Assembly (NCBI GenBank): GCA_963706285.1 | Contig: CAVPLU010000012.1 | Coordinates: 123,154 to 155,153, forward strand | DNA: 32,000 bases | Direction: 5' to 3' | Source of the DNA: Candidatus Bathyarchaeota archaeon | Lineage (GTDB): Archaea > Thermoproteota > Bathyarchaeia > 40CM-2-53-6 | Part shown: positions 1,310 through 7,926 of the stretch, one piece after another | Position numbering within the stretch: position 1 is the first letter of the stretch | Layout: each line of letters begins with the position of its first letter | Position numbers and translations under genes: made by a program | The notes under the pieces: model-generated | What the model was told of the DNA's origin: nothing | The model's database searches: none | Seen by the model: only the letters and a program-made list of their open reading frames with translations

Positions 1310-1579
1310 ATGATCGAATTGCTGGAAGTTTTGGCAAATTACGTCGCGACGAGAAAAAGAGGAAGAAACGGAAAAGTGTACGAATCGCCGCGGATCTACC
1401 TTCCAACGAAGCTGACGTGTGATTCGGGCTTTCCGCTGGCTGGAAGGATGACTAGAGTGAGAGTAAGGGTAGAGGGAAGGCGCCTGGTCGTAGAGAAGGC
1501 GTCAAAGAAGGATCTGAGGAGATTCGGCGAGTTGCCTGTCAAACGGACCAAACGTAAGAAACGCAGGAAGAGGCGATAG
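1310..1579 (+). CDS. small basic DNA-binding-like protein, AbrB/SpoVT-like swapped-hairpin pattern with a Lys/Arg tail
   Basis: 89-aa ATG ORF. The segment RIYLPTKL...GRMTRVRVRVEGRRLVVEKA resembles the AbrB/MazE-type motif (xIxIPxxl...Gd.v.v.v.g..l.i). The C-terminal tail is KRTKRKKRRKRR. Confidence 0.45.
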   Translation: MIELLEVLANYVATRKRGRNGKVYESPRIYLPTKLTCDSGFPLAGRMTRVRVRVEGRRLVVEKASKKDLRRFGELPVKRTKRKKRRKRR

Positions 1580-2075
1580 TGCTCGTTACTTTGGGAGAGG
1601 ATCGAGCGCGACCAGACTGATGGATACGTTCGAGGTAGCCCTCGCGGTCTATCTCCCCCGCCCTTATGCGCGTCGAGGAAATCGGCTCGAAGTCCTCAGC
1701 GACAACCATTCCGATAGAAAGTACCGGTAAAGGCCTGAGGCCACGCCGTCTCCTTATCGTGTTGATCCTGTCAGCTGTCTTCTTGGTCAGTCGGCTCACT
1801 ATGAGCGCAGCAATTGTCGAGTCATTGATCGCGGGGCCGTACGGGTCGTCCAAGGGCACTATCTTTGCCCTATCAGCAAGCTGCTCCTTCTTGAGGAAGG
1901 AGATGAGTTCCCGTTTTCTTTTCGGGTAGGGATCCACTCGATGATTCTTGACGAGTCGTTTGACGAAACCGTTGCGGCTCAAGCCAATTAGGACTCGGTC
2001 GCCTGCTCGAAAAGCCGTTCTGAGGAGGATCTTGTGGCCCCTGTGAAGTGCATCGAAGGTTCCGCCAACGGCCAC
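1539..2075 (-). CDS. coaD: phosphopantetheine adenylyltransferase, archaeal type (cytidylyltransferase family)
   Basis: Carries the VGGTFDALHRGHKILL nucleotidyltransferase (H/T)xGH motif and a C-terminal ISSTRIRAGEID motif. It lies directly downstream of pantoate kinase. The tabulated ORF start at 2465 overlaps pantoate kinase by more than 360 nt and is rejected. GTG at 2075 is the only canonical start near the conserved N-terminus, so the start is uncertain by about 40 nt. Confidence 0.75.
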   Translation of the reverse strand: MAVGGTFDALHRGHKILLRTAFRAGDRVLIGLSRNGFVKRLVKNHRVDPYPKRKRELISFLKKEQLADRAKIVPLDDPYGPAINDSTIAALIVSRLTKKTADRINTIRRRRGLRPLPVLSIGMVVAEDFEPISSTRIRAGEIDREGYLERIHQSGRARSSPKVTSTIASSCVSYVWSV

Positions 2076-2101
2076 TTCTCGGAAAGGCGGCCTTTTTGAA
2101 G

Positions 2102-3028
2102 TCAGAGCAACCGAGCCCCTGCGAAGTCCAAGGAAGACGAGAATGCTTGCACTCTGGGAAAGCGTTTTTTGACGGCTGCCAAGACCCTGCCTGCCAAATC
2201 CTCGATGGCAATCGCGTGAACTGCTTGTCCCAGCATGTTCTGGGTTGCACCGATTGCTCCAGCGTCCTCCATCACCTCTATGAGTTGGGCAGTCTGAGGC
2301 GACATCAAGCCCAATCCATAGGCAAATTCCTTTGAGGCAGTCATGAAGTTGGATGGTCGAAGATCTCTCACGATCGATTGAAAGGCCTCCTTGCCCAACG
2401 CATTGACTTTCTTCCTCAGATCTCTTGATCGTAGGGCTTCCTTGGTCGGTATTGGACCAACACATGCGGAGACAACTTTCAGATCAGGCGGGACTGATAC
2501 TCTGTCAATCACAGCAATACCGGGACCTCCACTCTTCCGAGTAATGACAAAACCCCCCGTGAGGATTGGACCTACAGTTCCCAAGCCCGTTCCGTTAGCG
2601 ATCTCTGCTCCATGCACTATTCGTCCAATCTCGTTGACGGACATTCCAAGATCTGCACCTTCAGCGAACGCAAGAGCTGCTGACATAGAACCCGCAGCGC
2701 TGGCTCCGTAGCCTGCGCCAATCGGAACACGTACATCGTGCTCGACGATGACTTCGTACTTCTCTCCCGAGACCTGAAGAAGTCTTGAGATCGCTGAAAT
2801 GGTAGTCCTCGCTTCCTTGGCAAGCCGCTTGTTGATTCGAACAGAAATCTGCGATGTGTTTGCGTGCTTCAGTCGCACACGTGTTAGCACGCCTCTGGAT
2901 ATCACCAACCCGCCACCTCGGGCGCCGGCGTATGAAGGATCTTTGAAGGGGCGCCCGTCGGGCCGCTTGTCGCGAATCTCGAAGAAGCTGCTGATCCCCG
3001 CAGGTGAGAACGCAGATGTCTCATGCAT
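2102..3028 (-). CDS. pok: pantoate kinase (archaeal CoA pathway, GHMP kinase family)
   Basis: 308 aa with the GHMP-kinase signature PIGAGYGASAAGSMSAALA. The N-terminal AFSPAGISSFFEI and overall layout match archaeal PoK (COG1829). It is adjacent to archaeal PPAT. Confidence 0.8.
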   Translation of the reverse strand: MHETSAFSPAGISSFFEIRDKRPDGRPFKDPSYAGARGGGLVISRGVLTRVRLKHANTSQISVRINKRLAKEARTTISAISRLLQVSGEKYEVIVEHDVRVPIGAGYGASAAGSMSAALAFAEGADLGMSVNEIGRIVHGAEIANGTGLGTVGPILTGGFVITRKSGGPGIAVIDRVSVPPDLKVVSACVGPIPTKEALRSRDLRKKVNALGKEAFQSIVRDLRPSNFMTASKEFAYGLGLMSPQTAQLIEVMEDAGAIGATQNMLGQAVHAIAIEDLAGRVLAAVKKRFPRVQAFSSSLDFAGARLL

Positions 3029-3774: not shown

Positions 3775-4113
3775 CTCAAATCGTCAGAGGCACGAGGCGC
3801 ATATGCCTTAACACTTCCCTAGAGACACTGGGCATGTCTCCAAAGTGTATATAGAATGGATTTCAGCATTTCCACTGGAAATCGACGAGCGCTAGGACCA
3901 CCGCGCCGCATCCTTTCTGTCTGAACTTCGATGAGCTCCAAGCGCGTTTTGATTACTTTTGATGGTGAGTTGCTGCATCTTCGCGACATCTGGAGCTTCC
4001 ATGATAACAATTCCGAATTCTGCGAATCCACAGTGACCAGAGAGTGGACACTCGCTTTTTCGCGCCCAGTCGCAAGTCATCAACACTGCGGATCAAGAAG
4101 ATCCGGATGTGAA

Positions 4114-4122
4114 GGTTTTTAC
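4114..4122 (+). promoter_or_regulatory. TATA-like element (GGTTTTTAC) upstream of the tRNA gene
   Basis: AT-rich box centred about 33 nt upstream of tRNA position 1. Assigned by position only. Confidence 0.25.
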
Positions 4123-4150
4123 GGGCACAAGCGCTCTCAACTGTTTGCGT

Positions 4151-4315
4151 AGCCCGGTGGTGTAGCGGTCAAACAGCCTAATGGACTAGGCATAGCAATG
4201 GCGCCAGACCAATGAGGCCACTAGATGGCTCTGGATCCCGCACTAGGAGAAGAAACCTGCCGACGGGAGTTCGAATGGTTCGTTAGAGAACCCGAACATC
4301 TCCCCCGGGCTACCA
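4151..4315 (+). tRNA. tRNA-Gln (anticodon CTG) with four BHB introns and encoded CCA
   Basis: The acceptor stem is AGCCCGG/CCGGGCT, followed by discriminator A and CCA. Exons are 4151-4172, 4190-4197, 4227-4234, 4255-4275 and 4299-4315. Introns are 4173-4189 (17 nt), 4198-4226 (29 nt), 4235-4254 (20 nt) and 4276-4298 (23 nt). The spliced product is AGCCCGGTGGTGTAGCGGTCAAGCATAGCAGGCTCTGGACCTGCCGACGGGAGTTCGAATCTCCCCCGGGCTACCA. It folds as a canonical cloverleaf with D stem GTGT/GCAT, anticodon stem GCAGG/CCTGC, anticodon loop CTCTGGA and T arm GGGAG-TTCGAAT-CTCCC. The conserved U8, A14, GG, U33, TTC and A58 are all present. Confidence 0.85.
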
Positions 4316-4616
4316 TCAACCACCGCCATTAGATTAGAGGTGGTTTCTCATCAGGGCAATCAACGCCATGACCCACGCCTTTCCGGCGTTGATGAGAACT
4401 CTCAAAGCGGCCCCTCTTTCCCGGAAAGCGGCCCCTCTTTGGAGGATGTGATCAAGCACCATGCTAGCGGTCCACCACCTAGACGGCAACAAGTGCAATC
4501 TTCTACCCGTGGAATCTGGCTCAACTGAGGACTCTCCTGCTGTGACGAGCCTGGCGTGACTCAAATCCATGCATCTGAACCCAAAGACATCATTATGCTT
4601 CCAAGAAACCGATTAG

Positions 4617-7137: not shown

Positions 7138-7926
7138 CTAGAAGTGTGTCAGGCGGTACTCAAGCGCATCCATTTCAGTGAGGATCTCGCGTGGTAGTCG
7201 GTCGCCGAATTGTTCAAAGAATTTGCGCTGGTCAGTGATGTCTTCAAGCCAGGCGGATCTATCTACTTCAAGGAGCGCCTCCATGTCGTGGTCCGATATT
7301 TCAAGTCCCGTCAAATCGAGGCTTGACTTGTGGGGCAGGTAACCTAATGGAGTGGTGACCGCTTCTGCTTCGCCTCTACTCCGTGCGAGGATCCACTCGA
7401 TGATCCTTAGATTCTCTCCGTAGCCTGGCCAGAGGTAACGTCCGTTGGCGTCCTGCCTGAACCAGTTCACGTGAAATATCTTGGGTGGCTCAAGCATTCG
7501 GGCGCCCATCCTAAGCCAGTGCACGAAGTAGTCAGCCATATTGTACCCGCAGAATGGCAACATCGCCATTGGGTCACGCCGCAACTGGCCCTGCTTGCCG
7601 TACTGAGCAGCAGTCAGCTCCGATGCTGCCGTCGCTCCGACATAGACGCCGTGCTGCCAACTGAATGCCTGATAGACCAATGGAGCCAAGTGAGCGCGTC
7701 GGCCTCCAAAGACGATCGCCGAGATCGGCACGCCGTGGTGCTGCTCAAGCCGGAAGGAGACAGATGGCACTTGAGAAAGAGGCGCAGTAAAGCGGCTGTT
7801 AGGGTGCGCCCCCAAGACGGGGTTACCGTTCTCGTCTTTCATTCTGAGAGTTCCAAGGGCGACCACGCCAATCGAGACCTTCGCTGGGAGGCGGATCGTC
7901 TCCGCCCTCCCACCACACTCCTCCAT
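7138..7926 (-). CDS. pckG: phosphoenolpyruvate carboxykinase (GTP), C-terminal fragment
   Basis: Carries the PEPCK-GTP motifs AHPNSRFTAP, GGRR, YQAFSWQHGVYVGA, FHVNWFRQD..G.YLWPGYGEN and the tail PLGYLP. The conserved sequence is in frame from about 7842 downward. The ORF start at 7926 is not the real N-terminus. Confidence 0.85.
   Translation of the reverse strand: MEECGGRAETIRLPAKVSIGVVALGTLRMKDENGNPVLGAHPNSRFTAPLSQVPSVSFRLEQHHGVPISAIVFGGRRAHLAPLVYQAFSWQHGVYVGATAASELTAAQYGKQGQLRRDPMAMLPFCGYNMADYFVHWLRMGARMLEPPKIFHVNWFRQDANGRYLWPGYGENLRIIEWILARSRGEAEAVTTPLGYLPHKSSLDLTGLEISDHDMEALLEVDRSAWLEDITDQRKFFEQFGDRLPREILTEMDALEYRLTHF

Follow-up and report, generated by a model that had tools for sequence, protein, structure and literature searches.

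For one locus on a contig of Candidatus Bathyarchaeota archaeon (assembly GCA_963706285.1, contig CAVPLU010000012.1, positions 123,154 to 155,153; this whole stretch of 32,000 nt is called the window hereafter, and all coordinates refer to it), the question arises whether two tRNA-like ends that lie 162 nt apart, starting at position 4151 of the forward strand, belong to a working tRNA gene, to the remains of one, or to no tRNA gene at all. The sequence of the locus and that of its relatives indicate that 4151–4315 is a real tRNA-Gln(CUG) gene in five exons, separated by four bulge-helix-bulge (BHB) introns. That the gene is functional and that its four short introns are spliced as proposed below is a reading to which we assign a probability of roughly 0.9.

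Structure of the locus and identity of the spliced product

Removal of the four introns (Table 1) from 4151–4312 leaves a product of 73 nt, next to which a CCA end is encoded, and ARAGORN identified the 73-mer plus CCA as tRNA-Gln(ctg) with a normal cloverleaf. The exon and intron coordinates and the 73-mer had been proposed in an earlier reading made from the sequence alone (the sequence-only reading) and turned out to be exact to the nucleotide; the A1:U72 pair and the CCA after the last exon, which it had also described, are both present. The anticodon CTG is located at 4231–4233, the first pair is A1:T72, and the discriminator is A73. Archaeal tRNA-Gln species carry a CUG or UUG anticodon and typically have A1:U72 and A73; the amidotransferase GatDE reads A1:U72 and the D loop.

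The unspliced gene was not called by ARAGORN in the window, either with or without intron mode, and Rfam did not match it in the window at the gathering threshold or in 4100–4480 at E ≤ 10. Since the segments to be removed had moreover been chosen by eye in the sequence-only reading, one might suspect a chance resemblance, with tRNA-like ends that happen to lie at this distance and “introns” picked afterwards. However, unsupervised spliced alignment returned the same four segments, the spliced product is identical in 69 of 73 positions to the independent, intronless tRNA-Gln(CTG) gene L030, itself a tRNA at 61.7 bits by the Rfam tRNA model, and the layout is common to at least 105 further loci. 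These three results rule out a chance resemblance, the probability of which we consider to be practically nil. In addition, scanning the whole window for combinations of an acceptor stem and a T loop gave only chance matches, and no other candidate with a CCA after it. As a control, ARAGORN found the intronless gene L030 and the single-intron gene L096; each multi-intron relative tested was missed by both ARAGORN and Rfam.

Distribution and conservation of the gene

Relatives were collected in two scans. One covered one genome per species with the broad first-exon pattern AGCCCGGTGGTGTAGYGGYYAA and gave at least 120 matches, which are archaeal tRNA-Gln genes, mostly of Bathyarchaeia; the other covered metagenome contigs and required introns 1 and 2 on either side of the 8-nt exon, and the resulting counts are lower bounds. 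Among the matches listed from the two scans there are at least 105 further four-intron tRNA-Gln(CUG) genes, located in 3 Bathyarchaeia genomes and on 102 metagenome contigs. Metagenome contigs of the Ga0187..., Ga0315..., and Ga0326... series derive from samples of peat and sediment. With the window gene, the set comprises at least 106 four-intron genes, 92 of which are unique. All of the 113 complete tRNA-Gln genes among the first-scan matches listed have the acceptor stem AGCCCGG...CYGGGCT.

A near-identical four-intron gene is present in the metagenome-assembled Bathyarchaeia genome L111, where all differences fall in intron bulges or loops. Four introns, the last one at site 53/54, also occur in L017 and L073. 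Fewer introns were found in L037 and L040 (three each), L034 and L100 (two each), L096 (the canonical one only), and L030 (none), and in L096, L034, L100, L037, and L040 the respective introns are missing precisely at the predicted junctions. The spliced window product is identical to the product of the single-intron gene L096 in 71 of 73 positions. Three of its four differences from the intronless gene affect anticodon-stem pairs that are still paired (A29:U41 to G:C, G27:C43 to G:U), and the fourth is at position 26.

The 106 four-intron genes give rise to only three mature sequences, which vary at position 16 and by a compensatory change of G49:C65 to A:U; exon 1 is identical in all of them or differs by a single C/T change at that position 16. 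Upstream of the tRNA, the element AAGGTTTTTACGG occurs in all loci of the clade to which the window gene belongs, with diverging sequence farther upstream, and the other clade has ACGAAAnnTTAAGATA at an equal distance from the tRNA. We infer that this element, which resembles a B recognition element (BRE) followed by a TATA box, is the promoter. CCA follows the discriminator in 103 of 103 orthologous loci.

These data bear on the possibility that the locus is a decaying pseudogene, that is, a tRNA-Gln gene which insertions have broken up and which has ceased to be expressed or spliced, so that decoding would fall to a second copy or to tRNA-Gln(UUG). Rejection of the locus by standard finders would suit such a view, as would the imperfection of three of the four BHB motifs, which are outside the minimum-free-energy fold, and the presence in the window of other seemingly broken genes, namely, those for phosphoenolpyruvate carboxykinase (PEPCK) and a GTPase, each of which is divided over more than one open reading frame (ORF). 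Decay, however, would reach the exons as well, and the mean pairwise exon identity across the 92 unique four-intron genes is 99.3%, as compared to intron identities of 73%, 84%, and 85% for introns 1–3 and of 65–68% for the T-arm introns. The sole exon change at a paired position is compensatory, the promoter-like element and encoded CCA are conserved, and in more than 100 lineages the insertions are situated exactly where BHB geometry permits excision. Exons are thus conserved and introns variable, with presence/absence polymorphism at the exact junctions. Taken together, the conservation of the exons, the compensatory changes, the helices kept in the introns (see below), the promoter-like element, and the CCA end do not agree with a pseudogene, which we regard as extremely unlikely, and argue for an expressed, functional gene under selection.

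Geometry of the splice sites

A BHB motif is defined by a pair of splice sites in two 3-nt bulges with a 4-bp helix (H helix) between them (PMC4090602). The corresponding cleavage rule, scripted on all eight junctions as a 4-nt H strand followed by a 3-nt bulge and a cut past the second bulge nucleotide, fits 8 of 8 junctions of the window gene, so that the claim of a single rule made in the sequence-only reading was reproduced. Intron 4 has a strict motif, comprising a fully paired (4/4) H helix TTCG:CGAA, the bulges AA/T and CA/T (the slash marks the cut), the inner helix GGTTC:GAACC, and the 5-bp T stem as outer helix. For intron 2, the H helix is ATAG:CTAG, with bulges CA/A and AT/G and the inner helix TGGC:GCCA; its outer helix of 3 bp is formed by G4190:C4229, C4191:G4228, and a G:U pair that uses the last nucleotide of intron 1. 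Intron 3 shows the H helix CTCT:GAAG, which includes one G:U pair, the bulges GG/A and AA/A, and the inner helix TCC:GGA; the anticodon stem serves as outer helix of this motif and is whole only once intron 2 is out. The H helix of intron 1, GGTC(4167–4170):GACT(4184–4187), is paired in 4/4 positions with one G:U, and the bulges are AA/A and AG/G. The script output matched the parts assigned earlier to intron 4 (a perfect hBHBh motif), to intron 2 (TAG:CTA pairs, bulges, and inner helix), and to intron 3 (H helix with one mismatch, bulges, and inner helix). With regard to intron 1, the H helix and the bulges stood, and the “weak outer helix” ascribed to it is in fact absent.

Comparison with the orthologous introns indicated that the H helix at 21/22 is paired in 4/4 positions in 64 of 64 distinct introns, and the same applies to all distinct introns at 53/54 and 59/60. 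At 37/38, full pairing was observed in 31 of 35 distinct introns, and the majority of the orthologues have the fully paired CTCT:GGAG. The H helix at 29/30 is weaker, with 3/4 positions paired in 38 of 47 distinct introns, 2/4 in eight, and 4/4 in one. Inner helices of introns 1, 2, and 59/60 amount to 2.9–4.6 bp, as compared to about 0.5 bp in shuffled cores, and they are kept through differing sequences, with several pair types per position; pairs 1–4 of the inner helix of intron 2 are paired in 96–100% of 55 distinct sequences.

Several observations weigh against splicing as proposed. Apart from the strict motif of intron 4, the window motifs deviate from the ideal geometry: the H helices of introns 2 and 3 are each paired in only 3/4 positions, with one A.G and one C.A mismatch, respectively, and the motif of intron 1 is of the relaxed HBh'-type, having an inner helix of 2 bp and an outer helix of 0 bp. 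The unconstrained minimum-free-energy fold of the full precursor (37°C) recovered the intron-4 motif alone. In constrained folding of the full precursor, the motif of intron 4 costs +3.3 kcal/mol, and forcing those of introns 2, 1, and 3 costs +4.1, +6.2, and +8.9 kcal/mol, respectively. Moreover, neither the structural (beta) subunit of the endonuclease nor RtcB was found among the approximately 30 of 53 listed window ORFs taken in by the Pfam scan.

The absent outer helix and short inner helix of intron 1, along with a folding penalty for this intron that amounts to about +5 to +6 kcal/mol whichever splicing intermediate was modelled, might point to a real gene from which the BHB endonuclease cuts fewer than four segments, for instance with intron 1 kept or another junction used; this would entail an expanded D loop or an extra processing activity. 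Nevertheless, every distinct orthologous intron compared retains the complete H helix at intron 1, covariation of this helix with the exon is seen in L040, where GGTC:GACT is changed to GGCC:GGCT on the exon and intron sides, and the inner helix measures 3–5 bp in most relatives. In the orthologues without intron 1 (L037, L096, L030), the sequence is exactly that predicted by its removal. As the endonuclease is also probably of the broad-specificity type, which cleaves relaxed motifs (see below), retention of one of the segments appears highly unlikely, and excision of all four remains the preferred interpretation.

Host and splicing endonuclease

The flanks of the window match those of L226, L198, and the Bathyarchaeia genome L111 at 93–94% identity, and many of the metagenome contigs show synteny in the genes upstream of the tRNA. 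Flank identity and synteny place the host in the Bathyarchaeia and not in the Thermoproteales; the sequence-only reading had named Thermoproteales-type archaea as known carriers of multi-intron tRNA genes. A search for contigs encoding the neighbouring 809-aa ORF returned no record (the start codon perhaps differs).

The ORF at 25806–26366, which had been suggested to code for the tRNA splicing endonuclease EndA, matched both tRNA-intron endonuclease Pfam domains (Table 1). Its closest solved relatives are the crenarchaeal EndA chains 2cv8_A (4e-40), 3p1z_B (2e-37), and 2zyz_B (4e-31); similarity to the endonuclease 1a79, presumably the alpha4-type enzyme of Methanocaldococcus jannaschii, reached 8e-14 only. 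We take 3p1z to be the EndA protein of Aeropyrum pernix, and 3p1z_B and 2zyz_B are presumably catalytic alpha subunits of alpha2beta2 enzymes. Lys39 of the window protein aligned to Lys44 of chain 3p1z_B. Residue K44 of A. pernix EndA, located in a Crenarchaea-specific loop, is reportedly required for the cleavage of relaxed, non-canonical BHB motifs and responsible for broad specificity (PMC3488258).

Proposed splicing pathway and order of intron removal

Transcription from the putative BRE/TATA promoter about 30 nt upstream would yield a precursor of approximately 165–170 nt. EndA, the catalytic subunit of which is encoded in the window, would cut past the second nucleotide of each bulge, and an RtcB-type ligase would join the five exons, including the two 8-nt micro-exons, to the 73-nt tRNA with its CCA already encoded; the RtcB pathway is taken from PMC4090602. 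Transcription, cleavage, ligation, and the order of splicing are inferred from the DNA.

Nucleotides G4228 and C4229 are required both by the outer helix of intron 2 and by the helices of intron 3, so that the two motifs compete; in addition, intron 2 lies within the 5' strand of the anticodon stem. This competition, together with the interrupted stem, suggests an order of splicing. In the folding models, the cost of the intron-3 motif dropped to +2.3 kcal/mol after removal of intron 2, and that of the intron-2 motif to about 0–1 kcal/mol after removal of intron 1. Introns 4 and 2 are probably removed early and intron 3 after intron 2, with intron 1, the weakest site, leaving at any stage. The predicted order fits the logic of iterative removal described for closely spaced archaeal introns (PMC8450103) as well as the ordered intron removal observed in Cyanidioschyzon merolae (PMC3728597).

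Alternative positions of the T-arm intron

The four-intron genes fall into at least 79 with introns at 21/22, 29/30, 37/38, and 53/54 and at least 27 with an intron at 59/60 as the fourth; five-intron genes having both 53/54 and 59/60 were not encountered among the 106 four-intron genes listed. In L136, L166, and L231, the closest relatives of the window gene among the matches listed, introns 1–3 are identical or nearly so, and a 15-nt intron at 53/54 is present in place of the 23-nt intron at 59/60. L130 and others likewise combine near-identical introns 1–3 with an alternative position of the T-arm intron, as compared to window positions 4270–4299. A rough neighbour-joining tree computed from the shared part shows at least five changes of T-arm position and has the clade of the window gene nested among the 53/54 genes.

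Both intron classes end in CCCGAA and adjoin the palindromic T-loop sequence TTCGAA. The explanation that a single intron had been parsed in two ways, at 53/54 and at 59/60, was rejected, because the 59/60 genes read CCCGAACA/TCTCC, and not TTCGAA, before the 3' strand of the T stem. Switching may have occurred by sliding, replacement, or recombination. We put forward, tentatively and as a rather doubtful proposition, that the gene family preserves a natural record of how introns turn over and of splicing in an obligatory order, with repeated sliding or replacement around TTCGAA, mutually exclusive BHB motifs of introns 2 and 3, and micro-exons that pass through cleavage, refolding, and ligation in a fixed order.

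T-loop insertions were also seen in other archaeal tRNA-Gln genes. Six of them (L027, L031, L032, L061, L063, and L088, four of which are titled Promethearchaeota and one “uncultured archaeon”) carry an insertion of 28–30 nt near 59/60, and the tRNA-Gln gene of L074 (Nanohalarchaeota) spans 307 nt, implying about 235 nt of intron sequence.

Comparison with known multi-intron and split tRNA genes

Up to three introns per archaeal tRNA gene are stated in the tRNAscan-SE 2.0 paper of 2021 (PMC8450103), and the sequence-only reading had given the same limit. It holds as a quotation of that paper; however, Asgard tRNA genes with four introns are tabulated in Supplementary Data 4 of Valentin-Alvarado et al. 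2024 (PMC11291895). That table gives four predicted and four observed introns for tRNA-Arg(TCT) and tRNA-Ile2(CAT) of Freyarchaeia, three predicted and four observed introns for tRNA-Leu(GAG) of Freyarchaeia and tRNA-Trp(CCA) of Atabeyarchaeia-2, and four predicted and three observed introns for tRNA-Lys(TTT) of Atabeyarchaeia. A full-text literature search for four-intron archaeal tRNAs or Bathyarchaeota tRNA introns retrieved nothing relevant in main texts. Four introns per gene are thus rare and little noticed, with precedent. As far as the literature search reached, novelty lies in the lineage and isoacceptor, in the occurrence of two 8-nt exons next to each other, and in how broadly the gene is conserved.

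Among the Thermoproteales, for which multi-intron BHB tRNA genes are well documented, Pyrobaculum islandicum tRNA-Pro(UGG) is interrupted at sites 25/26, 37/38, and 56/57 (Sugahara et al. 2007/2008, quoted in PMC4090602 and PMC8450103). The window gene resembles these three-intron genes in that each of the sites 29/30, 37/38, 53/54, and 59/60 appears in the published site list, the host encodes a crenarchaeal-type endonuclease subunit, presumably of broad specificity, and neighbouring introns can need ordered removal (PMC8450103). It differs in having four introns instead of three, a Bathyarchaeia host, and two consecutive 8-nt micro-exons, and its site 21/22 is outside the site list in the form quoted (20/21, 22/23, “etc.”).

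The Asgard Atabeyarchaeia and Freyarchaeia (PMC11291895) share four-intron tRNA genes with the host of the window gene, and there, too, introns are often missed by automatic tools. In contrast, they belong to another phylum and the isoacceptors are other ones, their tRNA-Gln genes having 0–2 introns; moreover, the four-intron cases are confined to the supplementary table and are not discussed, and a comparative series over more than 100 orthologues is not part of that study. Nuclear tRNA genes of C. merolae, named above, combine D-arm, 37/38, and T-loop BHB introns in one gene, and reverse transcription PCR revealed that the outer introns are out before the one at 37/38, which resembles the order predicted for the window gene (PMC3728597). 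In contrast to the latter, however, these genes reside in a eukaryotic nucleus, have three introns at most, and in some cases are also circularly permuted. Split and tri-split tRNAs of Nanoarchaeum equitans and Caldivirga maquilingensis (cited in PMC3218864 and PMC8450103) likewise consist of short pieces with BHB-like junctions and depend on the same endonuclease and ligase, but their pieces originate from separate loci and are joined in trans, whereas the exons of the window gene are collinear in one predicted transcript.

The list of lineages with heavily intron-bearing tRNA genes thus includes Bathyarchaeia besides Thermoproteales, Atabeyarchaeia, and Freyarchaeia, and the textbook limit of three introns is too low. 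Orthologues with one, two, three, and four introns and with alternative T-arm sites provide test material for the gain, loss, and movement of BHB introns, and the series could show how endonuclease and ligase handle 8-nt exons. In 633 kb around related four-intron genes (L121–L240), ARAGORN in intron mode found one tRNA (Lys). At approximately 46 tRNA genes per genome of about 2 Mb, a rough estimate, about a dozen tRNAs are expected in 633 kb. This low yield and the misses by ARAGORN and Rfam suggest that tRNAs of Bathyarchaeia may be underreported; many tRNA genes of this clade may contain non-canonical introns and be unannotated. Bathyarchaeia genomes may consequently be reported as being without tRNA-Gln(CUG), and probably without other tRNAs, which distorts inferences on completeness and codon usage.

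Features of the window and additional observations

Table 1. Features of the tRNA-Gln(CUG) locus and the endonuclease gene. Intron sites are given in Sprinzl numbering, derived from a D loop of 9 nt and a variable loop of 4 nt.
Feature	Coordinates	Strand	Size and site	Description
Putative archaeal promoter	4111..4122	+		BRE-like GAAGG, then TATA-like TTTTTAC (4116–4122), 29–35 nt upstream of tRNA position 1
Exon 1	4151..4172	+	22 nt	Acceptor 5' strand, U8-G9, D-stem 5' strand, D loop to position 21
Intron 1	4173..4189	+	17 nt, site 21/22	Relaxed BHB
Exon 2	4190..4197	+	8 nt	Micro-exon GCATAGCA; D-stem 3' strand, position 26, positions 27–29; invariant in 106 genes
Intron 2	4198..4226	+	29 nt, site 29/30	Anticodon stem
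Exon 3	4227..4234	+	8 nt	Micro-exon GGCTCTGG; positions 30–37, anticodon included; invariant in 106 genes
Intron 3	4235..4254	+	20 nt, site 37/38	Canonical site
Exon 4	4255..4275	+	21 nt	Position 38, anticodon-stem 3' strand, variable loop, T-stem 5' strand, T loop to 59
Intron 4	4276..4298	+	23 nt, site 59/60	T loop; strict hBHBh' motif
Exon 5 and CCA	4299..4315	+	14 nt + CCA	Position 60, T-stem 3' strand, acceptor 3' strand, A73; encoded CCA at 4313–4315
Terminator-like hairpin (putative function)	4318..4349	+		AACCACC (4318–4324)/GGTGGTT (4339–4345), then TTTCTC; stem retained in L226
EndA	25806..26366	-	186 aa	tRNA splicing endonuclease, catalytic subunit, crenarchaeal type; PF01974 (1.5e-24), PF02778 (1.1e-11)

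The intergenic region 3' of the tRNA contains a direct repeat, AGCGGCCCCTCTTT, at 4406–4419 and 4427–4440, and an inverted repeat, CTCATCA...ATCAACGCC / GGCGTTGATGAG, around 4349–4395; positions 4349–4440 are about 93% conserved in L226 and L111. Rfam gave no match in this intergenic stretch, and reading 4350–4480 by eye revealed no convincing set of C, D', C', or D boxes. In five of the related loci (L177, L216, L214, L227, L125), a T-arm-like segment, GTTCGAATCTC, plus a T run follows 10–15 nt past the CCA. The window lacks this segment, which may represent a duplication of a tRNA 3' fragment or may belong to another tRNA gene that has been disrupted.

Two other genes of the window are seemingly interrupted. 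The GTP-dependent PEPCK is split into two overlapping ORFs at 7138–9148 (- strand), with the N domain and positions 1–135 of the C domain encoded by ORF 7823–9148 and C-domain positions 133–356 by ORF 7138–7926; the frameshift near 7823–7926 marks either a pseudogene or an assembly indel. A ribosome-binding GTPase at 21399–22445 (+ strand) appears to be frame-split, with the MMR_HSR1 domain in ORF 21625–22095 and a C-terminal extension in ORF 22089–22445, and the region includes a further overlapping ORF at 21399–21761. The two splits hint at indel errors in the assembly. Within 1539–3028 (- strand), two ORFs of 308 aa each, a cytidylyltransferase-like one (1539–2465) and a GHMP-kinase-like one (2102–3028), share 364 nt, read in different frames; for one of the two, the upstream start is probably misassigned.

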